From assembly GCF_963921235.1 (NCBI RefSeq), contig NC_086108.1:8804001-8868000 (forward strand): a stretch of 64,000 bases of DNA, read 5' to 3'. Source of the stretch: Mobula hypostoma (taxonomy: Eukaryota). Positions 1 through 61,755 of this stretch are shown here, piece after piece. The notes beneath the pieces were generated by a model. That model saw only the letters and a list, made by a program, of their open reading frames with translations, made no database searches and was not told the origin of the DNA. Position 1 is the stretch's first letter; each line of letters begins with the position of its first letter. Position numbers and translations under genes: made by a program.

Positions 1-72
1 GGTTCGGCTGGACAGCAAGTCCTTCCTGAGTCGGCACGGCATGGACATGAAGTTCACCTACTGCGATGCACG
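1..72 (+). CDS. HIF3A: HIF-alpha (HIF3A-like) exon, start of PAS-B (5' part outside window)
   Basis: Frame 2 reads VRLDSKSFLSRHGMDMKFTYCDAR, matching HIF-alpha [22 protein letters not shown]. Donor cg|gtaggc, phase 2. Confidence 0.9.
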
Positions 73-5868: not shown

Positions 5869-5975
5869 AATCACCGAGCTCTGTGGTCACCGCCCGAATT
5901 TGCTGCTCGGACACACTGCCTATGAATTCTACCATTCGCTGGACTCTGACCACATGACCAAGACGCACCAAATCT
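5869..5975 (+). CDS. HIF3A: HIF3A-like exon, PAS-B
   Basis: Acceptor ctctctacag| and donor |gtaggt. 107 bp, [35 protein letters not shown], like HIF1A [34 protein letters not shown]. Phases 2/1 fit the neighbouring exons. Confidence 0.92.
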
Positions 5976-11155: not shown

Positions 11156-11303
11156 TGCTGAATAAGGGCCAGGTCAGCTCTGGTCAGTACCGCTTTCTGG
11201 CCAAGAGTGGAGGATATGTGTGGTTGGAGACACAAGCCACTGTGATCTACAGTGGGGACAACTTAAAGCCGGAAAGCATTGTCTGCATTAACTATGTGCT
11301 CAG
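11156..11303 (+). CDS. HIF3A: HIF3A-like exon, PAS-B/PAC
   Basis: Acceptor ttccacag| and donor |gtaagt. 148 bp, [50 protein letters not shown]. The LLxKGQ and ESIVC motifs resemble HIF3A. Confidence 0.93.
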
Positions 11304-14704: not shown

Positions 14705-14880
14705 TAAGGTAGTAGATGACGCACTCATCCTCTCCCTGGACCAGAACACAAGTCACCAGGAACCTGCAGTCGATCCCGGGAAAACCCAGGAGCTGCTCGC
14801 CCAGTGGAAGGACAATCCCACTGGCGCGGATGAGCTGGCACTAAGCTGTGTCGATATCATCGTCTCCCTGGATTTAAAAG
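14705..14880 (+). CDS. HIF3A: HIF3A-like exon, post-PAC / N-ODD-equivalent region
   Basis: C-rich tract plus acag| acceptor, donor |gtaccg. Reads KVVDDALILSLDQN...LLAQWKDNPTGADELALSCVDIIVSLDLK, which aligns to HIF1A LIFSLQQ...[28 protein letters not shown]. Confidence 0.88.
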
Positions 14881-15608: not shown

Positions 15609-15850
15609 ACCGGATGGATTCAAGCGCGTTCCACTTTACCAGGAAACTCATGGAAGGTGGAGAGGAGCTCTTGATGCCCGAGGAGTTCTGCAGCCCCGCG
15701 CTCTGCAAATTACTCTCGCCCATCTTCAACCACCGGCTGGAGCCAGTACCCAGCGGCGGCCAAGGCACGGAACCGGCAGCACGCAACAAATCTGGCCAGG
15801 CGGAGAGACGGGAGGCTGTGGTCACCAGGCCAAGTGACAGCGCCAACTCG
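15609..15850 (+). CDS. HIF3A: HIF3A-like exon with LxxLL motif
   Basis: Acceptor tgtgtcag| and donor |gtaagt. Contains FCSPALCKLLSPIFN, matching the HIF3A-type FCSPDLRRLLGPILD segment. Phases 1/0. Confidence 0.88.
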
Positions 15851-19265: not shown

Positions 19266-19813
19266 GGGTTGCAGGACATGGACCTGGAGATGTTGGCACC
19301 ATACATCTCCATGGAAGAAGACTTCCAGCTGAACAGCTTTGAGTCTTTGACGGAAGGAATCGAGGGGCTGGTGTGCCCTAATGATCACCCAGAGACGGAG
19401 ACCAACAAGCGGCAGGACAGTCGGGGTCTGGCCAAACTGCTGACCGACTGCAAGAGCACACAACCTAACGTGTTGGGCCGCTCGCACCCAGTGCAACCTG
19501 AAGTCCTTGGTGTGGCAGGAGACCCCGGAGCCTCACAGCAGTGCAGCGGCAGTCCCAGTCAGGGCAAGATCCAGGCGTACGGCCCCAGCAACCAGCCCCT
19601 TGTGTTCGGAGGGCCAGGATTCACTCCGACTGTGGAGAAAGCCCTCCGTGCGATATTCCAGCCCCAGGACACTGCCAGTCCCATGGAGACTGGAGTCTCT
19701 GAGTCACCCGGTAAGGAGCAGGATGCAGCAACACCAACGTTCCAGCCCACTAACCAATCGGACACCGGAGGCACGGAGAGTGAGAGCAGCCAGTGCACAC
19801 CATCCAAGGACAG
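19266..19813 (+). CDS. HIF3A: HIF3A-like exon, C-ODD / N-TAD with PHD-hydroxylated LxxLAP
   Basis: Acceptor tttgcag| and donor |gtatga. GLQDMDLEMLAPYISMEEDFQLNSF matches HIF3A LDLEMLAPYISMDDDFQLN. Open for 548 bp, phases 0/2. Confidence 0.93.
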
Positions 19814-24400: not shown

Positions 24401-24426
24401 GGTATGGAGGGAAGGCTGGGTTCTGA
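21414..24426 (+). pseudogene. CR1 ORF2 (APE endonuclease plus RT), frameshifted by a small deletion at ~23240
   Basis: NARSI, ITETW, YRPP, GDFN, SDHN and RT motifs are present. The QHGFV codons are missing relative to the copy at ~12650. Confidence 0.9.
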
Positions 24427-26224: not shown

Positions 26225-26336
26225 CAGATCACTCGGTGAGAAGAGTTTCACAGGAGACCAGAAGCAGCAGGAACTCCAGATACGTGCCCTTTGCAGCCTG
26301 AAACGCAAGCATGGTCCGGAGCTCAAGAATTCGCTG
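26225..26336 (+). CDS. HIF3A: HIF3A-like exon, first half of bipartite NLS
   Basis: Acceptor cacacag| and donor |gtagga. RSLGEKSFTGDQKQQELQIRALCSLKRKHGPELKNSL resembles HIF1A ILALQNAQRKRKMEHD. Phases 2/0 fit. Confidence 0.75.
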
Positions 26337-28920: not shown

Positions 28921-29029
28921 GAGCTGGATATTTCAGGAGTTACAGATCGTCACAGCGTTGGAACAAAGCGAGTGAGGAACATTGTAACCAGTGCATCCGC
29001 CAACCCTTTCACTCCAGCCCCACCAATGA
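28921..29029 (+). CDS. HIF3A: HIF3A-like exon, second half of bipartite NLS
   Basis: Acceptor ttctgtgcag| and donor |gtaagg. ELDISGVTDRHSVGTKRVRNIVTSASANPFTPAPPM; KRVR corresponds to HIF1A WKRVK. Phases 0/1. Confidence 0.72.
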
Positions 29030-35477: not shown

Positions 35478-38400
35478 CAACAGTTTCCTGTGGCAGAGAA
35501 TTCCACAGATTTTAGGACCGAGATTAGGAAAAACTTCTTCACACAGAGAGTGGTGAATCTGTGGAATTCTCTGCCACAGGAAACTGTTGAGGCCAGTTCA
35601 TTGGCTATGTTTAAGAGGGAGTTAGATATGGCCCTTGTGGCTACAGGGGTCAGGGGGTATGGAGGGAAGGCTGGGGCGGGGTTCTGAGTTGGATGATCAG
35701 CCATGATCATAATAAATGGCGGTGCAGGCTCGAAGGGCCGAATGGCCTACTCCTGCACCTATTTTCTATGTTTCTATTCACCACTCTCTGTGTGAAGAAG
35801 TTTTTCCTAATCTCGGTCCTAAAAGGCTTCCCCTCTATCCTCAAACTGTGACCCCTCGTTCTGGACTTCCCCAACATCGGGAACAATCTTCCTGCATCTA
35901 GCCTGTCCAATCCCTTTAGGATCTTATACGTTTCAATCAGATCCCCCCTCAATCTTCTAAATTCCAACGAGTACAAGCCCAGTTCATCCAGTCTTTCTTC
36001 ATATGAAAGTCCTGCCATCCCAGGAAATCAATCTGGTGAACCTTCTTTGTACTCCCTCTATGGCAAAGATGTCTTTCCTCAGATTAGGGGACCAAAACTG
36101 CACACAATACTCCAGGTGTGGTCTCACCAAGGCCTTGTACAACTGCAGTAGTACCTCCCTGCTCCTGTACTCGAATCCTCTCGCTATAAATGCCAGCATA
36201 CCATTTGCCTTTTTCACCGCCTGCTGTACCTGCATGCCCACTTTCAATGACTGGTGTATAATGACACCCAGGTCTCGTTGCACCTCCCCTTTTCCTAATC
36301 GGCCACCATTCAGATGATAATCTGTTTTCCTATTTTTGCCACCAAAGTGGATAACTTCACATTTATCCACATTAAATTGCATCTGCCATGAGTTTGCCCA
36401 CTCACCCAACCTATCCAAGTCACCCTGCATCCTCTTAGCATCCTCCTCACTGCTAACACTGCCACCCAGCTTCGTGTCATCCGCAAACTTGGAGATGCTG
36501 CATTTAATTCCCTCATCCAAGTCATTAATATATATTGTAAACAACTGGGGTCCCAGCACTGAGCCTTGCTGTACCCCACTAGTCACCGCCTGCCATTCTG
36601 AAAAGGTCCCGTTTATTCCCACTCTTTGCTTCCTGTCTGCTAACCAATTCTCCACCCACACCAATACCTTACCCCCAATACCGTGTGCTTTAAGTTTGCA
36701 CACTAATCTCCTGTGTGGGACCTTGTCAAAAGCCTTTTGAAAATCCAAATATACCACATCCACTGGTTCTCCCCTATCCACTCTACTAGTTACATCCTCA
36801 AAAAATTCTATGAGATTCGTCAGACATGATTTTCCTTTCACAAATCCATGCTGACTTTGTCCGATCATTTCACCGTTTTCCAAATGTGCTGTTATCACAT
36901 CTTTGACAACTGACTCCAGCAGTTTCCCCACCACCGACGTTAGGCTAACCGGTCTATAATTCCCCAGTTTCTCTCTCCTTCCTTTTTTAAAAAGTGGGGT
37001 TACATTAGCCACCCTCCAATCCTCAGGAACTAGTCCAGAATCTAACGAGTTTTGAAAAATTATCACTAATGCATCCACTATTTCTTGGGCTACTTCCTTA
37101 AGCACTCTAGGATGCAGACCATCTGGCCCTGGGGATTTATCTGCCTTCAATCCCTTCAATTTACCTAACACCACTTCCCTACTAACATATATTTCACTCA
37201 GTTCCTCCATCTCACTGGACCCTCTGTTCCTTACTATTTCTGGAAGATTATTTATGTCCTCCTTAGTGAAGACAGAACCAAAGTAATTATTCAATTGGTC
37301 TGCCATGTCCTTGCTCCCCATAATCAATTCACCTGTCTCTGTCTGCAGGGGACCTACATTTGTCTTTACCAGTCTTTTCCTTTTTACATATCTATAAAAG
37401 CTTTTACAGTCCGTTTTTATGTTCCCTGCCAGTTTTCTCTCATAATCTTTTTTCCCCTTCCTAATTAAGCCCTTTGTCCTCCTCTGCTGAACTCTGAATT
37501 TCTCCCAGTCCTCAGGTGAGCCACTTTCTCTGGCTAATTTGTATGCTACTTCTTTGGAATTGATACTATCCCTAATTTCTCTTGTCAGCCACGGGTGCAC
37601 TACCTTCCTTGATTTATTCTTTTGCCAGACTGGGATGAACAATTGTTGTAGTTCATCCATGCAACCTTTAAATGCTTGCCATTGCATATCCACGGTCAAT
37701 CCTTTGTGTCATTTGCCAGTCTATCTTAGCTAATTCACGTCTCATACCTTCAAAGTTACCCCTCTTTAAGTTCAGAACCTTTGTTTCTGAATTAACTATG
37801 TCACTCTCCATATTAATGAAGAATTCCACCATATTATGGTCACTCTTACCCAAGGGGCCTCTCACGACAAGATCGCTAATTAACCCTTCCTCATTGCTCA
37901 AAACCCAGTCCAGAATAGCCTGCTCTCTGGTTGGTTCCTCGACATGTTGGTTCAAAAAACCATCCCGCATACATTCCAAGAAATCCTCTTCCTCAGCACC
38001 TTTACCAATTTGGTTCACCCAGTCTACATGTAGATTGAAGTCACCCATTATAACTGCTGTTCCTTTATTGCACACATTTCTAATTTCCTGTTTAATACCA
38101 TCTCCGACCTCACTACTACTGTTAGGTGGCCTGTACACAACTCCCACCAGCGTCTTCTGCCCCTTAGTGTTACGCAGCTCTACCCATATCGATTCCACAT
38201 CTTCCCGGCTTATGTCCTTCCTTTCTATTGCATTAATCTCTTCTTTAACCAGCAACGCCACCCCACCTCCCCTTCCTTCATGTCTATCCCTCCTGACTAT
38301 TGAATATCCCTGAACGTTGAGCTCCCATCGCTGGTCACCCTGGAGCCATGTCTCTGTGATCCCAACTATATCATAATCATTAATAACAATCTGCACTTTC

Positions 38401-40107
38401 AATTCATCCATCTTATTACGAATGCTCCTTGCATTGACACATAAAGCCTTCAGGCGCTCTTTTACAACTCTCTTAGCCCTTATACAATTATGTTGAAAAG
38501 TGGCCCTTTTTAATGCTTGCCCTGGATTTGTCGGCCTGCCACTTTTACTTTTCTCCTTTGTACTTTTTGCTTCTACCCTCACTTTACACCCCTCTGTCTC
38601 TCTGCACTGGTTCCCATCCCTCTGTTGTGAACTAACCTCCTCACGCCTAGCCTCTTTAATTTGATTCCCACCCCCCAACCATTCTAGTTTAAAGTCACCT
38701 CAGTAGCCCTCGCTAATCTCCCTGCCAGGATATTGGTCCCCCTAGGATTCAAGTGTAACCCGTCCTTTTTGTACAGGTCACGCCTGCGCCAAAAGAGGTC
38801 CCAATGATCCAAAAACTTGAATCCCTGCCCCCGCTCCAATCCCTCAGCCACGCATTTATCCTCCACCTCATCGCATTCCTACTCTCACTGTCGCGTGGCA
38901 CAGGCAGTAATCCCGAGATTACTACCTTTGCGGTCCTTTTTCTCAACTCCCTTCCTAGCTCCCTATATTCTCCTTTCAGGACCTCATCCCTTTTCCTACC
39001 TATGTCATTGGTACCTATATGTACCACGACCTCTGGCTCCTCACCCTCCCACTTCAGGATATCTTGGACATGATCAGAAATATCCCGGACCCTGGCACCA
39101 GGGAGGCAAACTACCATCCGGGTCTCTGGACTGCGTCCACAGAATCGCCTATCTGACCCCCTTACTATCGAGTCCCCTATCACAACTGCCCTCCTCTTCC
39201 TTGCCCTACCCTTCTGAGCTACAGGGCCGGACTCTGTGCCGGAGGCACGGCCACTGTCGCTTCCCCCGGGTAAGCTGTCCCCCCCAACAGTACTCAAACA
39301 GGAGTACCTGTTGTTAAGGGGCACAGCCACCGGGGTACTCCCTATTACCTGACTCTTCCCCTTCCCCCTTCTAACCGTGACCCACTTGTCTGCCTCCCGT
39401 GGCCCCGGTGTGACCACCTGCCTTCCACTCCTCTCTATCACCTCCTCGCTCTCCCTGACTAGACGAAGGTCATCGAGCTGCAGCTCCAGTTCCGTAACGC
39501 GGTCCCTTAGGAGCTGCATCTCGATGCATTTGGCGCAGATGTAGACGTCCGGGAGGCTTGGAGACTCCAGGGCCTCCCACATCCGACACCGAGAACAGCA
39601 AACTGCCCTCACAGTCATAATGCCCCTCTCCTCAAATAGCAACAGAAAATGAATGTCAAACCTTCCTCGCCTCGCCCGCTTCCGCCTAAGCCCGTTGAGC
39701 CGAAGCCCTTAAGTCTTCACTCTGCTCCCGGCTCACTCCGCAGCCCGCAAACTACGCTGCCCGCTCTATGAGGCTTTGTTCCTTTTAAATCTGCCGCGCT
39801 GCACTGCCCGACGTCACATGCCTGCGCAGTCCCGCCTCTCAGAAAGCCGTTGGAGAAAAAAAAATAACGAAAATTTCAAAAATGTCTTTCTCGGCACTCC
39901 CACTCAGACTCTCAGACTCCTTCTTCGAATCAAACCCGAAGCAGGATGTCTGCCCTTTTAAATCTGCCGCGCTGCACTGCCCGACGTCACACGCCTGCGC
40001 AGTCCCGCCTCTCAGAAAGCCGTTGGAGAAAAAAAAAATAACGAAAATTTCAAAAATCTCTTTCTCGGCACTCCCACTCAGACTCTCAGACTCCTTCTTC
40101 GAATCAA
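35478..40107 (-). mobile_element. near-full-length young CR1 LINE (frameshifted), lacking its own 3' tail
   Basis: ORF1 38684-39642 and ORF2 pieces 37668-38678, 35999-37699 and 35707-36018. Nearly identical to 20151-24515. Confidence 0.95.
35511..35776 (+). mobile_element. short CR1 3' end in antisense inside the minus-strand CR1
   Basis: Runs from tttaggaccgag to the ctatgtttct tail; the host sequence cacagat|tcaccact is split around it. Confidence 0.85.
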
Positions 40108-43100: not shown

Positions 43101-43742
43101 TACAAATACTACCAGCAGCCAGTAAGAAAGTGATTATCAGGAAACGGCCAAGCAAAGAGTCTCCTATCGTCCTGGAAAGGATAGAAATAGTTCAAGAAAT
43201 ATATGTTATGGAACAATTGACACTAAAAAAATTGAAAAATACTGAGAAAATTGGACATTTTATTTGAACCTGAAATGACTTCTTCACTGTACATTTATTT
43301 GGATTGAAGAACTTTGTTTTATTTCTTCCTATGAGGGAACCTGCAGAATGGACTTTAAGGTCATGGATCTTAAGGTCCCCTGAGACTTTGAAGGACAATT
43401 ATGGACATAAGAGTGTGGTTAACCCAATGTAACCCTTTTCTATTATAAGATACGGATTTTACTTCACCTATTATGACCCTGTCTGTCTGTGTGTATTTAT
43501 CCTGTTTGTTCTGTTATTGGCAAAACAATGAAAATAAAGTTTAAAAGAAACTGATGTTCTGGCATCCATGGAGCCAGGAAATGATTTTAACATCTCACCC
43601 AATGTGTCTACCTGTTCATTGTTCTTTCAGTGCTGCACGGAGGTTTAAAACCAGAACGTTCTGACTTAGAGGCAGCTACTTGGTTAAAGTGCTATTAGGG
43701 TGAGGGTTCAGCTCTGTCTAACCTTGTGCTCTCTTTCCACAG

Positions 43743-44051
43743 AACTGACCATGCACCTACTCCAGACAGAGGCTTCTGAGCCCCCCCGAGCTGGCTGCTG
43801 CTGACTGTGGGGTCAGTACTCTATTACAGAACAGCCCAGGGAGCAGAGTTATGAAATCACCTTGGACCATGTCTCCCGAGGCCCTCGCTCCAACCACACA
43901 GAATCCCCTCTCTGGCAGACATCCCCACAGACTTCTTCCTGTGCCTCAACAGAGGCCGAGGCTTGGGTCAGCTCCTACACCTAGCTCAGAGCCGAAGTTT
44001 CTCTCGGTACCACAACCCAGTCTTTGGATGGATATAACACGAAAACTGTGA
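43743..44051 (+). CDS. HIF3A: HIF3A-like C-terminal exon with degenerate C-TAD (apparent 1-bp frameshift at C7 run 43781-43787)
   Basis: Acceptor ctctttccacag|. The spliced frame reads KLTMHLLQTEASEPPRAGCC* (stop 43802-43804). The shifted frame reads PPELAAADCGVSTLLQ, similar to [16 protein letters not shown], and stays open to 44051. Confidence 0.6.
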
Positions 44052-45539
44052 CCCATAGATGGGTGAATGCACAAGGGTTGTATACCTTCACTGAAGGCAG
44101 TACCCACCGTTCAATTTCAAATTCATTATCATCTGACTGTACATGTATACAACCAAACAAAACAACTTTTCTTTCCCTTGCCAGTTCGCTCTACAGCACT
44201 GTTCCTATATGTTTTCATTCATCCAGGATTTACCGCACAGCTACCTCAGTCTAAGGACAAATCTGAAATAAAACCATAATCTACAGACAATACACAGCAG
44301 GTCAGGCAGCATCAGTAGAGAGAGAAATATTTAACACTCGAAGCCAATGACTTTTGCTGGTAGCTCGTTTAAGACCATTTGGCCCATTGAGCCTGCTACC
44401 CCATTCCATCATGGCTGACTTATCTTCCCCCATCAAGCCCGTTCTCCTGCCTCCACGGCCGACTGTGGAAATGAATTCCACAGATTCACAAAGAAATTCC
44501 TCCTTGTAAAGACACAGAGTCTATGGAAGTGAGGCAAAGCAGCATCAACTTCATGGACCCTGTACAGATTACGCAGGAGGAGGTGCTTGCTATCCTGAGG
44601 CAAATTAGGGTGAATAAATCTCCTGACAAGGTGTTCCCTTAGACCCTATGGGAGGCAAGTGCAGAAATTGCCGGGGCCTTAGCAGAGACATTTAAATCAT
44701 TCTTAGCAACAGAAAAGGTCACAGCGGACTGGTGGATAGCTAATGTTGTTCCGCTGTGCGGGAAAGGATCTAAACCAGGGGATTATAGCCCTGAGGTTGG
44801 GTGGGACTACAACCAGAGGTCGTGGGTAAAAGGTGAAAAGCTTAAAGGGAACTGAAGGGGAAACTTCTTCACTCAGTGAGAGTGTGGAATGAGCTGCAAG
44901 TGGAAATGGTGCATGTGAGTTCTATTTCAACATTTAAGAGAAGTCTGAATTGGTACGTGGATGGCAGGGGTTTGGAGGGCTACGGTCCCAGTGCAGGTCG
45001 ATGGGAGTAGGCAGATCAAATACTTTGGCTCAAACTAGATGGTCTGTACTTTCTGCGATTATCTCTCTTCTAAAGGGAGGTCCTTGTATTCAGAGGTTGT
45101 GTCCTCTGGTCCTAGAATCCTCCACTATTGGACACATCCACTCTATCTATGGCCCTTGAATAGTCACTTATCGCTTTCAGTGTAGAGCTTAAACCTGTCT
45201 ATAACAGCAATAGCTTGCATTTTATCATTAATATTGTAAATATCCCCAAACAAGCTTAAACACAGACAGCAGGGGTAATAAATACATAAAAGCTGATAAT
45301 CTAAACTGTGCTGCAGATACTGAGCTGATTTGGCAGTGTCAATGGAGATAGAAGCAGGGGTTAATGTTCTCTGTCACTGACACAGACCTGGGAAAGCAAG
45401 TTCAAGAGTGAGAAGGGTTGAGGGAGAATGAGGTAGATATCCGATATGCCAATGTTTAAAAATTTTGAAAGGCAGCGAAGTCTCAAGGGGAAATTTCCAA
45501 GTCACTAACAGGAAAGAGTGCAGAGAACATTTGCAAGGA

Positions 45540-45872
45540 CTTGATTTACTGCCCATTATACCACTGGTATTTAAGGCAGCAGTGAAGATCTACCATCTCT
45601 GGTGGTGTTCAGGGCTTCCTTCATCATGTCAGTAGCTTCCTCTCGGTTTTCACTACTGTCAATGGTGTAAGTCCCAAGTGGAGACCCAGGAATTCCGTCG
45701 CACTCCCAGTGGACCACTCTTAGTCTGGCTTCTATTCTTTGACCTGTTTGGCATGGGTGACCCTACCAAGAGCCAAAGCACGAAGCCCTGACTCCAGCCA
45801 ACAAAGCTCTCTGGGCCATTGAGGCACACAAACCTTCCATCCCAACAACAAGGTTGTGATCCTCTTGGAGGA
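45540..45872 (-). mobile_element. RTE-related non-autonomous repeat (opposite-strand copy at ~57510-57875)
   Basis: Shares ggctggagtcagggct..ggtagggtcacccat and an accttcattg(c/t)tgccctaaatgccag end with 57510-57875. Confidence 0.5.
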
Positions 45873-47379
45873 CTGGGACTTGAGGTCCTGAGTCATGAGG
45901 AAAGATTGAATCGATTAGGGCAAGGGGAATGAGGGGAGGTCTAGATAGGTAAATGCAACCAGGCTTTTTCCACCGAGGTTGAGCGAGACTAGAATTGGAG
46001 GTTATGGGTTAAAGATCCAATGTCTTGTAAAGCCTTAGCATTATATCCTTGGTTTTATATACTAGAATATAAAATGAATGCTAATAGCACATTTGCCACC
46101 TTCACCACAGACTCAAGCTGCAAGTTAACTCCAGAATTGCATCCCAGGGGGATGGCAAGGTCTCCACGGTGATGCAGAAGGAACTTGGTGAAGGGTCAGT
46201 CTGGGTCCAGTGGTCAGCTTGCCCTCAGCTCCTTGACTTTAACCCCCACCAGATGCTTTGATAGGTTTCTCCCCATCCCCACCTGTCACTTCCTGGATCA
46301 GGTGGCCACTCTAGAACTAGCGGTCATAGGTTAAGGGTATAAAAGGTGAAATGTTTAAAGGGAAACGTCTTCACTCAGAGGGTGGTTAGAGTGTGGAATG
46401 AGCTGCCAGTGAAAGTGGTGGAGCAAGTTTGATCCCGTCTCAAGAGAAGTTTGGATAAGCACATGGGTGGCTGTGGTCCAGTTGCAGGTCGATGGAACTA
46501 GGCACTTGGACGCAGACGAGATGCATTTACAAGGATGTTGTCGGGACTTGAGGACCTCACTTATAGGGAATGTTTGAATAGGTCAATGGACTAGGCCTGA
46601 GGTTCCCAACCTTCTTTTTCCTGCTATGGACCCAAAGTTGGGAAGCCCTAGACTAGATAGACTGGGGAGCCTGTTTCTGTGCTGTTGTGCCCTATAACTC
46701 TAGCATGCACTTGAAGTTAAAACAGAGGCAATGATACTTCATTAGAAATGCAAATGCAAGTTACTATCGATGGGTTTTGGTCCGCAAGCTATTCAAAGGA
46801 AGGTAGAAGAGCAGGAGGCTGGAAAGCAGGCCTTGTGAGAGCAGAGGAGACTTGTGAACCCTTTCCATCCCTCACTGAGACAGCGCAGTGCCAGCAGGTG
46901 AGCGTGCATGAGTGGACAGGCACAATGGGAGCAGACGTTGGCATCAGACCCACTCAAACCCTTGTCACCCCGACTCTCTTCAAATTCTAACGTGTTCCCA
47001 AACTGCACATACAACACTGAAAAGAATTCAGCACATTTACTGCATGTTAAGAGAAAAACCCTGTAGAAATATCCTTACTGTGTCTAATGTAACTTCCCAT
47101 GGTGCTACAGATCTAGGTACCAACGTTGCAATTACGCCTCGACATTTCAAAGCGTTACACATCGATCCCCAGAGAACAAAACCTAGGAGAAAATACCTTG
47201 AGGGCATTAAAGCAAGTAGTTTTTAATTTACTTTTGATTTTTTTTTGTTTCTTGGATTTACATGTATTAGAGTTTTGAAAGTTGTCAAGAATTGTTCATT
47301 AGTTTTTGAGGAGTTTTCACAATCTGATTGGTGCAGATGACAGGCTGAGGCTTGACGGACATAAGAACCATCCACTGTA

Positions 47380-48025
47380 AGAAACATAGAAACATAGAAA
47401 ATAGGTGCAGGAGTAGGCCATTCAGCCCTTCGAGCCTGCACCGCCATTTATTATGATCATTGCTGATCATCCAACTCAGAACCCCGCCCCAGCCTTCCCT
47501 CCATACCCCCTGACCCCTGTAGCCACAAGGGCCATATCTAACTCCCTCTTAAATATAGCCAATGAACTGGCCTCAACAGTTTCCTGTGGCAGAGAATTCC
47601 ACAGATTCACCACTCTCTGTGTGAAGAAGTTTTTCCTAATCTCAGTCCTAAAAGGCTTCCCCTCTATCCTCAAACTGTGACCCCTCTTTCTGGATTTCCC
47701 CAACATCGGGAACAATCTTCCTTCATCTAGCCTGTCCAATCCCTTTAGGATCTTATACGTTTCAATCAGATCCCCCCTCAATCTTCTAAATTCCAACGAG
47801 TACAAGCCCAGTTCATCCAGTCTTTCTTCATATGAAAGTCCTGCCATCCCAGGAATCAATCTGGTGAACCTTCTTTGTACTCCCTCTATGGCAAAGATGT
47901 CTTTCCTCAGATTAGGGGACCAAAACTGCACACAATACTCCAGGTGTGGTCTCACCAAGGCCTTGTACAACTGCAGTAGTACCTCCCTGCTCCTGTACTC
48001 GAATCCTCTCACTATAAATGCCATA
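47380..48025 (-). mobile_element. young CR1 3' fragment
   Basis: RGFEYRSREVLLQ...GKAGAGF ORF and tail matching the young family. Confidence 0.9.
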
Positions 48026-48467
48026 AATGTAAGGTGGCATGGCACAGGAAGGGGGTGGGATGAGAATAAAACCTCCAGAACAACCAACAGTAACACACAC
48101 AAAAATGCTGGAGAAACTTAGCAGTTCAGGCAGCATCCACAGAGATGTCAATGTTTTGGGCCGAGGGCCAGTGGGCTCGATTGCAGCAACCAAACTTGTT
48201 ATCAAAGGTTATAAGTAATAGAAAATAATAAACGGTCGACACTTTGGGCTGATGAAGGGTCTCGGCCCAAAATGTTAATTGTTTATTCCTATTCATTTAC
48301 CCGCTGAGTTCTTCCAGTATTTTGTGTGTGTGTGTGCGTGTTGCTCTGGACTTCCAGCATCTGCAGAACCTCGTGTTTATACATTAATGTATGTCATGGA
48401 CTGAAATAACTAAACAGGAAATGTTACAATGTGCTGTGAACAGTAATTCCTTCTCACTATTCGCCAG

Positions 48468-48572
48468 AACAAGAATGGAACTCCCTTACCCCACCAGCCG
48501 CCCTGTACAGGACAGGAGCCTCCATTGCCTGGCCTACAGATTCCCAACTCAGTCTTGTTGACAACAGCATAA
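48468..48572 (+). CDS. candidate terminal exon of the HIF3A-like gene
   Basis: Non-repeat-looking sequence with acceptor ttctcactattcgccag|, a phase-0 ORF NKNGTPLP...VLLTTA*, and AATAAA at 48661-48666. No recognised homology. Confidence 0.3.
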   Translation, partial: NKNGTPLPHQPPCTGQEPPLPGLQIPNSVLLTTA

Positions 48573-50855
48573 TTTCTCATCGTAGCGCTAAGTGCCCGGA
48601 ATAATAACCTGTGGTGTCTTAATTAAATGTTTTTAAGTATGTAATCTCAGTACTAAAGGAAATAAAGTAAATGTAAATATTTTACAGAATCGTTCCTTTT
48701 AATAACTTAAAGGATGTTGCCAGGTCTGGAGGACCTGAGTTATAAGGAAAGGTTGAATAGGTTAGGACTTTATTCTTCGCAGTGTAGAAAATTGAGAGGA
48801 GATCTGATAGAGATATACAGAATTCTGGGGGGTATAGAGAGGATAAATGAAAGCAAGCTTTCCCCACTGAGGTTGAGTGGGACTACAACCAGAGTTCATG
48901 AATTAGGGGTGAAAGGTGAGAAATTTAAGGGGAACATGAGGGGAAACTTCTTCCCTCAGAGGATGGTGAGAGTGTGGATCAGGCTGCCACCGCAAGTGGT
49001 GCATACGAGGTTGATTTTGACATTTGAGGGACTTTTGGATAGATACATGGATTGGAGGGCTATGGTCCCAGGGCAGGTCAATGGGAGTAGACAGTTTGAA
49101 TGGCTCGGGCGAGACTAGATGGGCTGAAGGGCCTGTTTCTGTGCTGTACTTGTCCATGACTCATCCCCCAATTCTTTCACTCACCCCGAGTAGTTGCAGA
49201 AATTCTAAACACGTGGATACAAAACTTGCTTGTTTATGGGACAGTTTGTGACTGCAGGCTGTCCTGAACTAATGTGCACTGCAAAGTCCCACCAACCTGA
49301 CCCTGAGGTTGGATCAGGGATAAAGCAGCAAATGCAGGACTGCAAGCAGTCACCTAGCCTTTTGGACCTTTACACATCCCCATTTGGAAAGTCATTGTTC
49401 TAAGAGAAATGCACAAAGGAACTGGAGGGACTTGAGTGTGTGGGGGGGGCGGTCAGGCAGCTTCTGTGGAGGTTCAGGTCAAAACCCTTCATCTGCTCTA
49501 GAATAACAGCTCAGAAACATACATCAACAGTACTTTGACTTTGAGGAAAGAACGCTATCTCTTACTGAGCCACGGTAATACCCTGTATTATCTACAGCCT
49601 GAGAAAATTCTGTTTATTTATTGCGATAGAGTGCAGAATAGACCATTCCGGCCCTTTAAGCAACATTGCCCAGCAATCTCCTGATTAACTACAAGACAAT
49701 TTACAATGTCCTAACAATCTTTGGACTGTGTGAGGAGACAGGAGCTTCCAAAGGAAATCCACTCCACCATGCAGCACAGAAACAGGCCCTTCAACCATCC
49801 AGCCCATGCCGAGTCCCATCGACCTGCATCCGGACCATACCCCTCCATACCTGTCCCATCCATGTACCTATCCAAATTTCTCCTAAACATTGCAATCAAA
49901 CTCACATTCACCATTTGAGCTGGCAGCTCGTTCCACATTCACACAGCCCTCTGTTTCTCCTCAGGTTCCCTTAACTATTTCACCTTTCACCGGTAACCTA
50001 TGACCTTTAGTTCTCATCTCAACCAACCTCAATGGAAAGAGCCCGCTTGCATTTACACTAACGTTAATTTATTACATGCCATGTCGTATGACGTGGGTGA
50101 TCATGGTCTTTCAGTGACCATAATTGATCTTGGCAATTTTTTCTACAGAAGTGGTTTGTCATTGTCTTCTTCTGGGCAGTGTCTTTACAAGATGGGTGAC
50201 CCCAGCCAGTATCAATACTCTTCAGAGATTGTCTGCCTGCCTGGCATTAGTGGTCACATAATCTAGATTTGTGATACACACCAGCTACTCATATAACCAT
50301 CCACCACCTATTCCACACTATCTATAGCCCTCATAATTTTGTATGCCTCCATCAAATCTCCTCTCGGTCTTCTACATTCCAAGGAATAAAGTCCTAACCT
50401 ATTCAATCATTTCTTATAACTCAGGTCCTCCAGTCCTGGCAACATCCTTCTAAATTTTCTCTGTACTCTTTCAACATTGTTTACATCTTTCCTGAAGATG
50501 AAAACCACATGCAATACTCCAAATTAGGCCTCACCAATGTCTTATACAACTTCAACATAACATCCCGTCTCCTGTACATAAATCAAAGTATTGAGAAGGA
50601 CAACGTGTCGGAAGTTGTAACTACACATCGGCTTACGGAGCAGTCACACAGGCTTTCTGGCTTCTCCACCAATCCAGGAGTCACTGTGTCTGACTGGGAG
50701 TAACAGCCCTTCCTGATTAACAGGCCTCACGCCTCTGGTCACTGGCGTTATGCTAAACTACTGTGTCGCTAGAGGAACAAGCTCTGGCTGGTGATGGGAA
50801 GAGTTAAACCAGAATAACACACACAAAATGCTGGAGGAACTCAGCAGGTCAGGTA

Positions 50856-51580
50856 CATAAAAACATAGAATAGTGCAGCACAGTACAGGACCTTCAGCCC
50901 ACAATGTTGTGCTGACCCTCAGACCCTGCCTCCCATATAACCCCCTCCACCTTAAATTCCTCCATATACCTGTCTAGTAATCTCTTAAACTTCACTAGTG
51001 TATCTGCCTCCACCACTGACTCAGGCAGTGCATTCCACGCACCAACCACTCTCTGAGTAAAAAAGCTTCCTCTAATATCCCCCTTGAACTTCCCACCCCT
51101 TACCTTAAAGCCATGTCCTCTTGTATTGAGCAGTGGTGCCCTGGGGAAGAGGCGCTGGCTATCCACACTATCTATTCCTCTTATTATCTTGTACACCTCT
51201 ATCATGTCTCCTCTCATCCTCCTTCTCTCCAAAGAGTAAAGCCCTAGCTCCCTTAATCTCTGATCATATTGCATACTTTCTAAACCAGGCAACATCCTGG
51301 TAAATCTCCTCTGTACCCTTTCCAATGCTTCCACATCCTTCCTATAGTGAGGTGACCAGAACTGGACACAGTACTCCAAGTGTGGCCTAACCAGAGTTTT
51401 ATAGAGCTGCATCATTACATCACGACTCTTAAACTCTATCCCTCGACTTATGAAAGCTTTCTTAACTACCCTATCCACCTGTGAGGCAACTTTCAGGGAT
51501 CTGTGGACATGTACCCCCAGATCCCTCTGCTCCTCCACACTACCAAGTATCCTGCCATTTACTTTGTACTCTGCCTTGGA
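50856..51580 (-). mobile_element. CR1 3' fragment (another subfamily) inserted in a Penelope-derived repeat
   Basis: ORF 50894-51709 carries CR1 motifs; short direct repeat aggta on both sides. Confidence 0.85.
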
Positions 51581-51618
51581 GGTAGCATCTATAGCAATGA
51601 ATAAAGAGTCAATGTTTC

Positions 51619-54410
51619 TGTAGTATATAGATCTATTTCTTTTAGAGCAATGAGCCCCTCCCCCTTTAGTGTTACGTATTGGTATGTTGTCTGCGCGATG
51701 TGAATACACCTGTTAAAGTCGCCTCCTGCATACGGCTTTTATTTAATCAACATGTAGCTGTGCACAGTCACAACAAATTGGCAACAAGTACGAACCTGAA
51801 TGTCAGAAAATAACACGAACTGCACAACAGTTATGGGATGAAATAGCGAGAGTTAAACAGCACGAGAAAGCCGAAAGCCCTGTGAGTAACAGTGAAAGAC
51901 GCACTGAATTTAAAGTGAAAGTAACGCTGTGGTGGCTTGAGTCAGGAAAGTTGGTGAATTTGATAGCACTAATGAAAGCTGGGAGTTGTATATTGAGAGA
52001 GTTGAACTGTATTGTAACACAAATTTTGGAGGAGCAAAGACCCTACACTTCTTAACAGGTCATGGATGGACAGTCTCTCATGCAGCCTAGTAACCCATGA
52101 GAAGCCAGCAAGCAAGACATTCAATGAAATTCTTACAATTTTACAAAATCACTTGAGCCCTAAACTGCTGGTAATAGCTGAGAGATTTAGATTTTACAAA
52201 AGGAACCAGTCAAAGGATGAAAGCATTTCTGAATACATTGTAGAACTGCACAAACTTTCCCAGTACTGTGACATTAAAGATGGCTTTTCTGATGCATTAA
52301 GGTGCATTGATGCATTCTGATGCTTGTATGTGGCATGCATAGTCAAAGCACCCAAAAGAGGCTACTGTCTGAACGAGACTTAATCTTAGAATGGGCATTG
52401 ACCATTGAGACTGCAGCAAAGGGCACTGCAGAACTACAGAAAAGGAGGTTACAATGTGAAATGCACAAATTGTCCCTGAATGGTGCAAAAAGCAAAAAAA
52501 TGTCATCAATGTGACAAAACCTCCCATGATGCAAACAACTTGGTTCACAGACAAAGTCTGCAGAAAGTGTAGAGAGAATGTGCAAGGCAGACAAAAAGCA
52601 CAACCGAGTGAAAAGCAAATGCATAAAGTTACAAATGTAAAACAGAATTAGACAACATAGAGTCTGACAAAGGTGAACTGTCATGCCCAGCACTGCATGG
52701 TATTACTGAAGCAGATCACAAGATCATATGGATCACAATAGATGTTTCTGGTGTAAAACTGAAACTGGAGCTGGATACAGGGTCAGTTTTGTCCGTAATT
52801 CCAGAGGCTGACTACAACAGACCGTTTCCTAAGATACCATCAGAGAAGACTTCAGTGGTGCTAAAGACTTACACAGGCAGAGACAAACTGAAGGCGAATG
52901 TGATGTATGGAGGCCAAACACAACTTAGAAATGTGTTTATCAAAAACTGAGGACCAGCATTTTTCAGATGTGAACGCTTTGAGAAAAATCCAACTAAACT
53001 GGCACACGATCAAAGCTCTCAGTGTGGCATCATCAGGCAAAGGCAGCACTGATCAGAGACTGTCACAGCAGCTTAATGCTAATGAGAAGGTATTTGAGAA
53101 GAGGACTGGAAGCAGCAACTCCAAAATTCCGTAAAGTGCGTCCAGTGCCTTATGCACTATGTCCTAAGTGGCTGCAGAACCTCAGGGTGTGGAGAAGTCC
53201 AGAATTCTCTCCCAGGTTGAGTGGAGTGATTGGGTCACGCCCTTTGTCCCAGTGATCAAGAACAGGAAGGTCCGAGCTGTTCGCGTTCATGGGGACTTCA
53301 ATGTGAGCATCAGCCCTGTGCTGTGTACCGAGCAGTTTCCTCTGCCATGAATAGATTTTTGCATCCTTGGCACGTGGGAAGAGGTTTTCAAAGACTGATT
53401 TGTTACATGCTTATCTGCAAATGGAGACAGAGGAATCATGTTCCTCAGAGTCGACATTCACAAGGGATTGTTCCAGTATAATCGTCTCATCTTTGGCAAC
53501 ATATCAGCTCCAGCAACTTGGCAAAGAGTAATAGCCCAAGTGCTCCAAGGTATCCTGGAACATAGTGTTACCTTGATAACATCATCATGACTGGCAAAAA
53601 TGATGAAGCACACCTCCAGAACCTTGGTAGAGTGCTTACCAGACTGGGTGGGTGTGGTCTGTGCACAAAGAGAGAGAAATGCGAGTTTTTCAACAATAAA
53701 ATCTCACATTGTGGATGTTATTGACAAGCATAGCTTACATAAGTAAGAAGTGAAGACTGGAGCGGTGCTATAGACACCCAAACCGGGAAATGTGTCACAA
53801 CTCAGGTCATACTTGGGCCTTGTAAACTTCTACCACCGGTTTCTCCCAAACATTGCTACAGTGCTGCACCCATTGAACACACTGTTACAGGCAGGAGCAA
53901 AGTGGGAATGGTCAGAAAGATGTGAAAGAGCATTCAGGGAATCAGAGTCTAGTAACATCAGATGAATTGTTCACCCATTATGACCCATCCCTGCCCATCA
54001 GACTGGCGTGTGATGCATGCCTTTACGCCATTAGAGCCATTTTGGCACACATTATGAAAGGTGGGTCTGAACGCCCGATTGTGTTTGCTTCAAGATCACT
54101 GACAAGCATAGAACACAACTATGCACAGATTGACAGAGTCTAGTTCCACCAATACCTCTGCAGACAAAAGTTTACTCTAGTGACTGACCACCAGCCTCTT
54201 GTGTCCATTTTCAACCCCAAGAACGGGATTCCAGTAACGACTGCTACGCAGTTACAACGCTGGGCACTATTCCGAGGAGCCCACTCTTATGACATATAAC
54301 TCAACGGTACCAAACAACACAGCAATGCTGATGGCTTGTTACATCTTCCACTATTGGCAACTGAAGAGGAAAAGTCTTCATACTGCGACCCAGCAGAGGT
54401 GTTCCACACT
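51619..54410 (+). mobile_element. decayed Gypsy LTR retrotransposon (5' LTR ~51619-51775, gag, PR, RT, RNase H; integrase and 3' LTR not seen)
   Basis: TGTAGTAT...CAACA followed by PBS-like TGGCAAC. gag WELYIERVE and VIAERFRFYKRNQ; protease LELDTGS; RT WVTPFVPVIK..GDF; RNase H LACDAC..FASRSLT..NYAQID. Many stops and frameshifts. Confidence 0.85.
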
Positions 54411-54414
54411 GCAT

Positions 54415-57400
54415 TTGATCTCAGTCCGAAACTAATCCCTCCGACCTACACCATATTCCTCACATCTGTGCGCCTATCCAAATGTCTCTTAAAAGCCTCT
54501 CATGTATTTGCTTCTATCACCACATCAGGCAGCACATTCCAGGCATCCACCACTCTCTGAGTAAAAAAACTTACCCCTCACATCCCCCTTGAATCTACCC
54601 CCTCTCACCTTCAATGCATGCCCTCTGGTGTTAGACATTTCTACCCTGGGAAACAGATACTCTCTGTCCACTCTATCTATGCCTCTCATAATCTTATAAA
54701 CCTCTATCAGATATCCCGTCAGCCTCCGGCATTCCAGAGAAAACAACCCAAGTTTATCCAGCCTCTCATGATAGCACATGCCCTCTAAACCAGGCAGCAT
54801 CCTGGTAAACCTCTTCGTACCCTCTCCAAAGCCGCAACATCTTTCCTATAGTGGGGCAACTAGAACGGTATGAAACACTCCAGATGTGGCCTAACCAGAA
54901 TTTTATAAATCGCAACATAACCTCTTGGCTTTTGAACTCAGTGCCTCAACTAATACAAACCAAGCATTCTGTGTAGCCATTTTCAAGGAGCTATGAACTT
55001 GGATCCCAAGATCTCTCTACTCATCAACACTGTTAAGGACCTTGCCCTTAACAATGTACTGTCTCCTTGAATTTGCCCTACCAAGGTGCAACACCTCACA
55101 TTTATCTGGGTTAAACTGCATCTGCCATTTCTCTGCCCACATCTGCAACTGATCTATATCGTGCTATATTCTTTGTCAGTCTTCTACACTACCCACAACT
55201 CCACCAATCTTGGTACCATCCACAAACTTACTAACTCATCCATCTACAGTTTCATCCAGGTCATTATATACATCACAAAGAGCAGAAGTCCCAGCACAGA
55301 TCCCTGCAGAACTCCACTAATTACAGACCTCCAGCTCAGTTAAGCCCTTTCAACCACTACCCTCTGTCTTCTATGCAAAGCCAGTTCTGAATCCAAACAG
55401 CCAGTTCACCGCAGATCCCATGCATTTTAATCTTCTGGATCAGCCTCCCATGAGGGACTTTGTCAAGTGCCTTACTAAAATCCATGTGGACAATATCCAC
55501 TTCATCAACCTCTCTCATCACCTTGTCAAAAATCTCAATCAAGTTGGTAAAATACGACCTGCCCCACACAAAGCCATCCTGTTTCTCCCTAATTAGACCA
55601 TAGTTTTCCAAATGCTCATCTATCCTATCCATAAGAATTTTCTCCAGCAATTTCCCTACAACTGACATGAGACTCAACGGTCTACAGTTCCCAGGATTTT
55701 CCCTTGTTCCTTTCTTAAACAGAGGTGCAACATTAGCCACTCGTCAGTCTTCCGGGAATTTGCCTATGGCTAGAGAGGACACAAAGATATTTGTCAAGAC
55801 ATAGGAGCAGAATTAGGCCATTCAGCCCATCAAGTCTCCTCTGCCATTCCATCATGACTGATCCTGGATCCCACTCAACCCCACACATGTGCCTTCTTAT
55901 CATATCCTTTGATGTCCTGACCGAACAGGAAATGATCAGCTTCTGCCTTAATTATATCCATGGACTTGGCCCCCACCGCAGTCCCTAGCAGGGCATTCCA
56001 CAGATTCACTACTCTCTGGCTAAAAATTTCCTCCTTACCTCAATGAGATCCCCTCATATTCTTCTAGATACTAGTGAGCACAGAGCTAAAGCTGCCAAAT
56101 GCTCCTCATTCATTCCCAGAATCATCCTGGTGAACCTCCTCTGGACTCTCTCCAATGACAACACATCCTTTCTGAGATTTGGGCCCCAGAAATCTCGTCT
56201 CTTGCCTCCTTCAATAAGCTAGGGTAAACCCCATCAGGCCCTGGGGAATTAACCACCCTAATCCTCATTAGGAGACCCAATATTTCCTCCTCCTTGACCT
56301 CCAAACAGCCTAACATGTTTATACCCATTTATATCCATCCTTCTCCTTCTCTCTACCAGGAACGCCCAGGACATACCCTCTTCTCATTATTACCTCCAGG
56401 AAGGAGGTACAGAAGCCTGAAGACACACACTCAGTGATTCAAGAACAGCTTCTTTCCCTCTACCATCCGATTTCTAAATGGATATTGAACCCATGAACAC
56501 TGCTTTCACTTTTTTAATGTTTTTGCACTAACTGTTTAACTTACATATACTCACAGGAATCCATTTATTTATTGATTCATTCATTCATTCACTCTACATT
56601 TGTCATGTATTGCATTGTACTGCTGCATTAACAAATTTCACAACATTTTCCAGTGACATTAAATCTGATTCTGAACATGCCTTTCCTGCACTCTGTGTAA
56701 TTGATCTTTAAATGTCTGATGTGGACTTGCAGGAAAAAATAGGTGTTCCCAATGAACTCTCCTCAGTTCCTGCCTCATACCCTTGAACTTAGCCCTATCC
56801 AATTTAAAACTCCCTCAAGGACCGTACCTATTCTTATCTATAGCTATCCTGAAAGTTAAAGGTAAGGAGTTGTGGTCACTGTTCCTGAACTGCCCACCCA
56901 CTGAAAGGTCAGTTACCTGCCCAGGGTTATCACCCAACACCAGGTCCAGTACAGCCCCTCCTCTCATTGGACTGGCCACATATTGACTTAAGAAACCTTC
57001 CTGGATACACTTAAATTCTGTCTCGTTTAAACCTCTTATACCAAGACGGTCCCAGTTTATATTGGTGAAGTTGAAATCCCCCGAGACAACAACCCTATTA
57101 TTTTTGCACGTTCCCTTAATCTGATGATATATTTGTTCCTCAATGTTCAGGTGGCTAGTTGGGGTTCTGTAGTACAATCCTATCAGTGTATTTGCATCTT
57201 TAAATGCATGCCCTCTGGTATTAGACATTTCAATCCTGGGAAAAGATACTATCTGTCTACTCTATCTCTGTCTCTCACAATCTTAAGAACCTCTTTTAGA
57301 TCTCCCCTTGGCCTCCATTACTCCAGAGAAAACACCCCAGGTTTGTCCAGCCTCTTGATATAGCACATGCCCTCAATCCAGACAATGCCCAGGTAAACCT

Positions 57401-57510
57401 CTTCTGTGCCCTCTAAAGTCTCGAAATGCTGCCTGTAATGGGGCAACCGAAACTGTATGCAGTATTCCAGATGTGGCCTAACTAGAAGTTTATAAAGCTG
57501 CAACGTAACC
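54415..57510 (-). mobile_element. stack of old CR1 fragments with a Rex/Babar 3' fragment (~56360-56675, +)
   Basis: Minus ORFs carry ANVAPLFKKG, MDFSKALDKVPH, SPGPDG, GDFNF and SDHN motifs. Confidence 0.75.
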
Positions 57511-58519
57511 TGGTTTAGAGACTTGCGAGCCTCAATGACCTGGAGAGCTGCGTTGGCTGGAGTCAGGGCTTGGTAGGGTCACCCATTGCCAACCTGGTCA
57601 AAGGGTAGAGGCCAGACTAAGAGTGGCCCACAGGTTCAAGGGTTCAGCTCAGGATTAACAACCCTGACTGGTCAAACGAAAGTGTTATGCAAACAGCAAT
57701 GAAGAATCCTTCTACATCTGAGTGTGACTGTGTTCCTGAGTCTCCACCCGGGACTTGCATGAACACTGAGAGGAAGCTAATGACATAATGATGGAAGCCA
57801 TAAACACCGCTAGAAATAGAGGACCTTCATTGTTGCCCTAAATGCCAGCGGCCTGCGGCAGACAGCAAGTAAGTAGCAATGTATCTTCCTGACTTTTGAG
57901 CTGAACGTCTTATAAAGGCAAACATGCATATGCCTTCCTAATCACCCTGTGTAACCACAGTCACATGTAGCTATGTTCACAGCGACTGGGCGGGAATCCC
58001 AGAGCTCCCGCCCCATTAGCATAGTGGGAGCACCTTTACTGCCCAACTAAGGATGGACAGTAATTAACTCCTCTGTGGTTCCTGTAGTGCAGGGATCAGA
58101 AATGCACACAGTACTCTGGCTGGGCTAGCTAATGCTCTATTCAGTTCTAACATGACCCACCTGCTCTTAAATTCCAAGTGTCAGCCACTAAGTATCGCCT
58201 GTGATAACAGCCTCCTTATCCTTCTGTCACATTAATATTGAGGATCAGAATCAGTTTTAATATTACTGCACATGGTCCTGTGCAAAAGTGTAAGGCACGT
58301 ATCTATAACTAAAGTGCCTAAGATTTTACACAGTACTGCATTTGTCAACGTGGAGCAGAGAGCGAGTTTGTAAACCTGGAGCAAAGGATATTGGGAATGG
58401 CGAGGGATGGAGCATCACGGGAGGGGTGTGGGGCAGGTGGCAGAGAAGGACTTCTGGTGGGGGGGTGCTACAGACACACCAGCCCTGAGACACCAGGCAA
58501 GGTCATTTCATTCCAAACA

Positions 58520-58751
58520 CCAGGAATTCTGCAGATGCCGGAATTTCAAGCAACACACATAAAAGTTGCTGGTGAACACAGCAGGCCAGGCAGCATCTAT
58601 AGGAAGAGGTACAGTCGACGTTTTGGGCCGAGACCCTTCGTCAGGACTAACTGAAGGAAGAGTTAGTAAGAGATCTCTTCCTATCTCTTCTTTCAGTTAG
58701 TCCTGACAAAGGGTTTCAGCCCGAAACGTCGACTGTACCTCTTCCTATAGA
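58520..58751. mobile_element. palindromic Penelope-derived element with hammerhead motifs
   Basis: Inverted arms (58596-58657 and 58690-58752); TSD TCATTCCAAACA at 58508-58519 and 58752-58763. Confidence 0.8.
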
Positions 58752-61125: not shown

Positions 61126-61755
61126 GAGGATTCGAGTACAGGAGCAGGGAGGTACTACTGCAGTTGTACAGGGCCTTGGTGAGACCACACCTGGAGTATT
61201 GTGTGCAGTTTTGGTCCCCTAATCTGAGGAAAGACATCCTTGCCATAGAGGGAGTACAAAGAAGGTTCACCAGATTGATTCCTGGGATGGCAGGACTTTC
61301 ATATGAAGAAAGACTAGATGAACTGGGCTTGTACTCGTTGGAATTTAGAAGATTGAGGGGGGATCTGATTGAAACGTATAAAATCCTAAAGGGATTGGAC
61401 AGGCTAGATGCAGGAAGATTGTTCCCGATGTTGGGGAAGTCCAGAATGAGGGGCCACAGTTTGAGGATAGAGGGGAAGCCTTTTAGGACCGAGATTAGGA
61501 AAAACTTCTTCACACAGAGAGTGGTGAATCTGTGGAATTCTCTGCCACAGGAAACAGTTGAGGCCAGTTCATTGGCTATATTTAAGAGGGAGTTAGATAT
61601 GGCCCTTGTGGCTACGGGGGTCAGGGGGTATGGAGGGAAGGCTGGGGCGGGGTTCCGAGTTGGATGATCAGCCATGATCATAATAAATGGTGGTGCAGGC
61701 TCGAAGGGCCGAACGGCCTACTCCTGCACCTATTTTCTATGTTTCTATGTTTCTA
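61126..61755 (+). mobile_element. young CR1 3' fragment
   Basis: ORF 61164-61667 and (TTCTATGT)n tail. Confidence 0.92.

Follow-up and report, generated by a model that had tools for sequence, protein, structure and literature searches.

Is the absence of a C-TAD, the transactivation domain at the C-terminus, a defining property of HIF3A, or was the domain lost separately in several lineages? The question is raised by 64,000 nucleotides from the ray Mobula hypostoma (NCBI RefSeq assembly GCF_963921235.1, contig NC_086108.1, positions 8,804,001 to 8,868,000 of the forward strand), hereafter the window, in which the last exon of a HIF3A-like gene begins as a C-TAD exon and soon reaches a stop. 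HIF-3alpha has been described in a 2026 review as lacking the C-TAD and as a weak activator or a competitor for ARNT and HRE in mammals (PMC13760070, available text). Outside HIF-1, HIF-2, and HIF-alpha-like sequences, Graham and Presnell (2017) have found no C-TAD, and they refer to earlier work for its loss in HIF-3 (PMC5470732, available text). Townley (2022) has confirmed that ray-finned HIF3 is without CEVN (PMC9789988, available text). In the available portions of these three sources (PMC5470732, PMC9789988, PMC13760070), lack of a C-TAD and of an FIH site counts as a trait that defines the HIF3 paralogue.

The last nine exons of Mobula hypostoma HIF3A lie in the window (Table 1). All nine have AG/GT borders, and when joined they give exactly residues 231-753 and the stop of XP_062919669.1, the RefSeq HIF 3-alpha-like protein of Mobula hypostoma, to which the ODD exon (19266-19813) is 100% identical. 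The window covers PAS-B onward only; the complete protein contains the bHLH (PF23171) and two PAS domains, and its C-terminal ODD (PF11413) with LxxLAP scores 52.6 bits. Isoforms differing by one Ser at the tandem acceptor 26225/26228 are found in the models of Mobula, Hypanus, and Hemitrygon. Self-repeats make up about half of the window. Two long and closely similar LINE copies, which we take to be CR1-like by their ORFs, lie in inverted orientation at 20383-24426 (+) and 35999-39708 (-), in the introns either side of the exons at 26228 and 28921. An element of LTR-retrotransposon type with broken RT and RNase H pieces (PF17919, PF17917) is present at 53566-54296 (+). A Pfam scan of 114 non-repeated frames of at least 42 codons in 44300-64000 gave no neighbouring cellular gene for synteny; five frames matched retroelement domains, and a herpes UL73 match of one frame fell below the cut-off and was taken as chance.

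Table 1. Features of the HIF3A locus, numbered from the first letter of the window.
Feature	Positions	Strand	Remarks
HIF3A exon, PAS-B start; begins before the window	2..72	+	tblastn to XP_062919669.1 residues 231-254; GT donor
HIF3A PAS-B exon, 107 nt	5869..5975	+	tblastn
HIF3A PAS-B/PAC exon, 148 nt	11156..11303	+	tblastn
Exon with degenerate N-terminal ODD, without the target proline	14705..14880	+	LAL at about 14835-14843, LAP in sharks
Exon with the HIF3-type FCSP.L..LL.PI motif	15609..15850	+	
C-terminal ODD / N-TAD exon (PF11413)	19266..19813	+	LAPYISM intact from 19293
Exon with KRK basic motif	26228..26336	+	tandem acceptor 3 nt upstream, fits RefSeq isoform X1
Penultimate exon, 109 nt, phase 0 to 1	28921..29029	+	its final 30 nt form the loose end spliced to 43743
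Last exon, coding part	43743..43804	+	opens with the N-terminal C-TAD part in frame; then five residues of the shifted frame and the stop
C7 run, where the first (+1) frameshift lies	43781..43787	+	judged real, not an assembly error
Predicted fossil piece 2, helix-2 region	43782..43832	+	CGVSTL for shark CEVNAP; Ser at the Asn position; out of frame
3' untranslated region covered by spliced contigs	43805..44300	+	about 240 further letters of two contigs beyond
Predicted fossil piece 3, QGAEL, start of helix 3	43837..43851	+	third frame, then stop
Predicted fossil piece 4, ITLDHVS (43856-43876), end of helix 3	43856..43879	+	codon 43877-43879 is CGA

The last exon has its acceptor AG at 43741-43742 and starts at 43743 in phase 1, after the exon 28921-29029. 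The frame read from 43745 encodes 19 residues, ends in RAGCC, and stops at TGA 43802-43804, with five residues beyond ASEPP before the stop. The protein ends about 20 residues into the exon and keeps the first 14 residues of the C-TAD exon. Four runs of the 23 listed, one from each of four organisms, were aligned to 43600-44300 as contigs rather than raw reads; no listed run is recorded as RNA, and the RNA status of these four was guessed or unlabelled. Contigs started exactly at 43743 in all four, and in at least three of the four, among the matches listed, the loose 5' end corresponded to 29000-29029 (30/30 letters in X10, 28/30 in X17, and 29/30 in X19). The presence of an exon-exon junction within contigs shows splicing despite the guessed RNA status. 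Hexamers resembling poly(A) signals (AATAAA or ATTAAA) occur at about 44267 and 44613. A short repeated element lies within the 3'UTR at 44104-44170, where many unrelated contigs stack in all four runs.

None of the four runs has an indel at the C run, and run X5, from another individual of the same organism, has no differences over 43743-44300. X19, the most distant run, has a substitution inside the C run, keeps the shift and the stop, and reads TAA in place of TGA. Three indels are listed for X19 in 43743-43879 (3 letters out; 11 and 1 in), leaving the net frame unchanged relative to the window, and its changes in the C-TAD frame near the break fall on P, E, and D positions. The X19 substitutions among the matches listed (4 of 62 coding positions, 4 of 75 fossil positions, and 18 of 221 other UTR positions) are uninformative on constraint, because they are too few and the listing is partial. 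In M. birostris, Hypanus sabinus, and Hemitrygon akajei, too, the annotated proteins close with the same shifted RAGC(C) tail. Since the runs carry no indel and three other species have the same tail, the frameshift is judged to be real and older than the split between devil rays and whiptail stingrays.

Downstream of the break, the +1 frame from 43782 contains CGVSTL and is open for 89 codons to the stop at 44049-44051. Positions 43782-43900 were compared with 11 C-TAD tails by frameshift-aware alignment. Four of these queries were controlled, each against 60 segments drawn at random from the window and 40 shuffles. The scores of the Heptranchias (38), skate-type (54), and orang-utan HIF1A (36) tails were each reached by none of the 60 segments and none of the 40 shuffles; the score of the Narcine tail (20) was reached by one random segment and three shuffles. 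For nine of the 11 tails the alignment ends at 43876, the point at which shark proteins terminate, and the first break is followed by one or two more; the parses for Heptranchias, Pristiophorus, and Narcine put QGAEL and ITLDHVS in two other frames. As the remnant continues in other frames to the end of the shark C-TAD, the domain is broken two or three times rather than once, the number of later breaks being ambiguous in the alignments. The codon 43877-43879 lies where shark C-TADs stop and reads CGA in the window and TGA in X10. Retention of an ancestral stop was considered for this TGA but given no weight, since the codon is unchanged in the other three runs and a CpG transition explains the difference.

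Profile searches gave no Pfam match (PF08778 cut-off 25) for any of three window readings, namely the one-break tail read through the C run with X and either unjoined frame. Against a profile of 22 non-HIF3 C-TADs, the translated exon scored 0.4 bits and the one-break reading 7.4-9.1 bits, with a null maximum of 8.4 bits among 8520 window segments. A three-break reading, with breaks of our own choosing, scored 16.5 bits; in-frame skate and Narcine tails scored 4-21 bits and full shark tails 48-75 bits. The leucines of helix 3 are not in frame with helix 2 in the window and are split over other frames. Helix 3 (Leu818, Leu822) has been reported to carry key p300-binding residues (PMC5576430 and PMC1473195, available text). 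On its own, the C-TAD is disordered. Because no Pfam match is obtained and the last helix is broken by one or two more frameshifts, a change of one base would not restore a working domain.

The sequence-only reading had raised a homopolymer assembly error, in which the true sequence with six C's encodes an FIH-insensitive C-TAD-like tail. Such an error would fit the position of the break in the C7 run and the finding that one C fewer restores shark spacing through the helix-2 region. It has practically no chance of being correct, given four runs free of an indel, a second individual among them, the same tail in three other species, and a broken C run with the shift kept in X19. The one-break tail, moreover, lacks helix 3, runs into an unrelated tail, and gave no PF08778 match when the corrected peptide was scored, a check that the same reading had proposed; that one C hides a working tail is likewise refuted. 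Recoding, by which frameshifting at the C run or read-through of the TGA yields a minor C-TAD-bearing protein, could draw on the 89 open codons from 43782 and on the return of the last fossil piece to the upstream coding frame. TGA followed by C is also a leaky stop context. Recoding is nevertheless very improbable: X19 has an interrupted C run, a TAA stop, and changed conserved residues in the C-TAD frame, neither frameshifting nor read-through alone gives both helix 2 and helix 3, and the remnant is without the Asn and without the Tyr. The likeness downstream of the stop could also be due to chance, with no C-TAD remnant in the 3'UTR, which would agree with the failure of three window readings in Pfam, a one-break score near the null maximum, and a Narcine query not clearly above its controls. 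The likelihood of this is equally slight, as three of the four controlled alignments beat all nulls and the match opens immediately behind the start of the orthologous exon and, in nine of 11 alignments, closes at the orthologous C-terminus. The 3'UTR of ray HIF3A very probably holds a real, multiply broken C-TAD fossil, and neither an assembly error nor a hidden FIH-insensitive domain. Other parts of the sequence-only reading fared better. The 29029-to-43743 junction is used (at least three of the four runs, among the matches listed), the tail is a C-TAD vestige by alignments above the nulls for three of four queries, and Ser (CGVSTL) stands at the FIH Asn position in the +1 frame. The exon starts at 43743 in phase 1 as claimed, although the stop does not follow ASEPP immediately and five more residues come first; likewise, the C7 run is the first break of the domain but not the only one.

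Raw scores and most RefSeq names do not point to HIF3A, and orthology was therefore tested by trees. A shark bHLH-PAS region scored 510 bits against the solved structure of HIF1A, 468 against HIF2A, and 433 against HIF3A, and most orthologues carry the RefSeq label 'HIF1-alpha-like'. In a bHLH-PAS tree of 30 rows (LG+G4), the eight shark and ray rows form one clade (100/100) that is sister to seven bony-vertebrate HIF3A rows (100/99). A quick full-length tree of 48 rows recovers the same grouping of sharks and rays with HIF3A (SH-aLRT 99), which agrees with the earlier description of the gene as HIF3A-like. In both trees, this clade is separate from the HIF1A that these sharks and rays also have, from HIF2A, and from three candidate HIF4A rows. 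The rows were hand-picked to cover each paralogue, comprise only two of HIF2A, and are without chimaera, shark HIF2A, or shark HIF4A; the HIF4A labels are our own, based on motifs and placement in the tree. The window gene lies outside the HIF1A clade, and a separate HIF1A exists in Heptranchias, Narcine, and Pristis alike. The 24 proteins retrieved with the shark ODD region all belong to this clade or are of HIF3A/hif1al type. An axolotl (Ambystoma) protein named 'EPAS1-like' groups with the coelacanth and bichir candidate HIF4A rows (100/100, bHLH-PAS tree); HIF4 has been reported as lost in tetrapods (PMC10958119, available text).

If the gene were instead HIF4A or a duplicate of HIF1A, the shark C-TADs would be unremarkable and only the ray loss would be new. 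The raw bHLH-PAS scores and mixed RefSeq names lean this way, and HIF4A has been reported to be without the N-terminal ODD and to have the CEVN position (PMC9789988, available text). This identity is nonetheless quite unlikely, as both trees join the gene to HIF3A with strong support and set HIF1A, HIF2A, and candidate HIF4A apart. FCSP.L..LL.PI and LAPYISM are common to the window gene and HIF3A; the candidate HIF4A rows have LAPYIPMDGEDF and are without the first motif. The N-terminal ODD proline kept in sharks also speaks against HIF4A. On trees and motifs, with most orthologues being gene models rather than checked cDNAs, the window gene is a HIF3A orthologue, and many shark 'HIF1-alpha-like' annotations are HIF3A.

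Comparison of the exon among cartilaginous fishes, also suggested from the sequence alone, has proved informative. PF08778 is above the cut-off in 10 of 11 sharks (29-65 bits) and in none of eight batoids (rays and skates). The FIH Asn is kept in nine of the 10 positive sharks: CEVNAP is exact in seven, Heterodontus and Cetorhinus have the Asn with neighbouring changes, and Scyliorhinus has Glu. The N-terminal ODD proline is present in 11/11 sharks and 0/8 batoids. Among the batoids, Narcine, Rhinoraja, and Amblyraja have an in-frame tail that carries Asp in place of the Asn, and in the four myliobatiform rays the tail of the last exon is shifted. Asp at this site may still be a substrate of FIH. 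Absence of the C-TAD and FIH Asn does not define the HIF3A clade, because 10 of the 11 shark orthologues have a C-TAD. The one shark without PF08778 is Carcharodon carcharias, whose isoform models, four in number, all pass into unrelated sequence beyond the ODD exon; this tail is probably a gap or a mis-model. The Pristis pectinata model ends in the +1 frame of the penultimate exon, with TLSLQ common to that frame of 28921-29029 in the window, has its stop at the end of that exon, and reflects a separate truncation or an assembly error. In the epaulette shark, Hemiscyllium ocellatum, the model keeps CEVNAP and its last residues fit the +1 frame of Chiloscyllium helix 3 (7-residue run, reached in 0/300 shuffles), pointing to real loss of helix 3 or an assembly error. 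The epaulette shark is hypoxia-tolerant.

Related tails also occur among bony vertebrates. Coelacanth (Latimeria) HIF3A matches PF08778 at 65.6 bits and carries Ala in place of the Asn. The N803A mutant is constitutively active, and the coelacanth Ala is its natural counterpart. Full-length lungfish (Protopterus) HIF3A has an in-frame PF08778 match of 29.2 bits with Asp at the Asn position, and a lungfish-like protein scores 25.3 bits. Chi (2013) reported lungfish HIF-3alpha as undetected and inferred its loss (PMC3836196, available text), which the present lungfish HIF3A contradicts. PF08778 was found in none of the five other bony-vertebrate HIF3A proteins scanned (caecilian, newt, deer mouse, gar, and reedfish). 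The caecilian and newt tails align with C-TADs by eye, but were rejected because their scores of 4.5 and 4.3 bits do not reach the null maximum of 8.4. The N-terminal ODD proline is also present in coelacanth, caecilian, and two teleosts and absent in lungfish HIF3A. A CEVN-type motif is found in the HIF1A, HIF2A, candidate HIF4A, and lamprey rows.

These distributions suggest a staged history. The ancestral jawed-vertebrate HIF3A would have had two ODD prolines and a CEVN C-TAD, as sharks still do. The ancestor of rays and skates would have lost the N-terminal ODD proline and the FIH Asn with its tail still in frame, as in Narcine, Rhinoraja, and Amblyraja, and a +1 shift would then have severed the domain in the common ancestor of Mobula, Hypanus, and Hemitrygon, before further indels accumulated. 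Parsimony on the tree would place loss of the Asn on the batoid stem, among bony vertebrates, and in one catshark, and loss of the whole domain at least three times, in myliobatiform rays, ray-finned fishes, and tetrapods. Loss in the last two would be separate because coelacanth and lungfish, which lie between them, keep a Pfam-positive tail. In both rays and lobe-finned vertebrates an Asn-less in-frame state is seen in lineages that branch before full loss, and the inferred order is Asn first and frame later. The sequence-only reading had offered, as one of two options, that the ray tail is an intermediate in C-TAD loss; loss it is, although apparently as the end state of a separate ray event and not as a step toward the mammalian state. 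The true intermediates, in frame and without the Asn, would be those of the skates, electric ray, coelacanth, and lungfish. Ray HIF3A thus described, ending about 20 residues into the last exon with the remainder of the ancestral C-TAD frameshifted in the 3'UTR and the mammal-like state reached independently, is held with high confidence. Because most sharks sampled still encode a C-TAD and rays stop before it, HIF3A has likely lost the domain several times independently, not once as textbooks imply.

The coding sequence of the ray mRNA specifies bHLH-PAS-PAS, a single ODD proline, and the N-TAD region, and it terminates ahead of the sites for FIH and p300. The protein would dimerize with ARNT, bind HREs, and be degraded through its one remaining proline, and may act as a weak activator with an N-TAD only or as a competitor of HIF1A and HIF2A at ARNT and HREs. 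From the HIF pathway, and as described for mammalian HIF3A, it is likely to be regulated by PHD/VHL and to be without both a C-TAD route to p300/CBP and FIH control. A broader proposal is tentative and on balance doubtful: HIF3A would have begun as an FIH-controlled, p300-recruiting activator, still so in most sharks, with decay in a repeatable, Asn-first order separately in rays and lobe-finned vertebrates and loss also in ray-finned fishes. If true, the Asn-less tails of skates, electric rays, lungfish, and coelacanth would be natural activation domains that escape FIH, the Mobula 3'UTR fossil would be the last step of decay, and the shark-skate-stingray series would directly test the effect of the C-TAD on activator versus repressor behaviour of HIF3.

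By itself the ray locus shows ordinary decay of a domain; it gains value as the legible end of a comparative series that corrects the standard statement on HIF3A. In that series absence of the C-TAD is lineage-specific: sharks retain the domain, skates, coelacanth, and lungfish have an eroded one, and at least three independent truncations are likely. Repeated loss points to relaxation of, or selection against, strong activation by HIF3, and the natural variants (intact, Asn-less, and truncated) bear on whether HIF3 is an activator or a brake. The word 'shark' is absent from the text of Townley (2022; PMC9789988), and 'shark', 'cartilaginous', and 'coelacanth' from that of the 2026 review (PMC13760070). 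The available portions of PMC10958119, PMC13720435, and PMC11370800 do not address a shark HIF3A C-TAD or its loss in rays, and one supplementary file of PMC10958119 has no shark terms. What PMC13720435 reports, in its available text, is confined to CTAD regions, extended or truncated, of chondrichthyan sequences that it assigns to HIF-1alpha. The open-access literature, covered mostly by title and start of abstract, gave no report of a shark HIF3A C-TAD or of ray loss; prior notice is possible, including in supplementary alignments. Shark HIFs were reportedly studied by Rytkonen et al. in 2011, who may already note the shark C-TAD. Pfam labels of these orthologues are already in public databases.

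Among known systems, mammalian HIF3A is an orthologue of the ray gene; both have bHLH-PAS-PAS and the PF11413 ODD/N-TAD with LAPYISM, and neither has an FIH site because neither has a translated C-TAD. The ray loss differs in being separate and recent enough for the domain to stay readable in the 3'UTR, and in that the protein retains the first 14 residues of the C-TAD exon. Some mammalian and teleost HIF3A isoforms carry an LZIP at the C-terminus. The orthologous Hif3a (hif1al) of ray-finned fishes is without CEVN (PMC9789988, available text) and, in gar and reedfish, without PF08778; two teleost rows keep the N-terminal ODD LxxLAP that is absent in rays, and no C-TAD remnant was seen in the ray-finned protein tails (at most 0.4 bits, non-HIF3 profile). 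With the C-TAD of HIF1A and HIF2A (PF08778; FIH target Asn803; ligand of p300/CBP TAZ1) the window shares the phase of the last exon and a colinear remnant, whereas its own domain lies outside the translated region, carries two or three breaks, and has Ser in place of the Asn. In the shark HIF3A orthologues, the same gene has a tail colinear with the window fossil; in contrast to the window gene, 10 of the 11 sharks encode the C-TAD in frame, nine of those 10 keep the Asn, and all 11 keep the N-terminal ODD proline.
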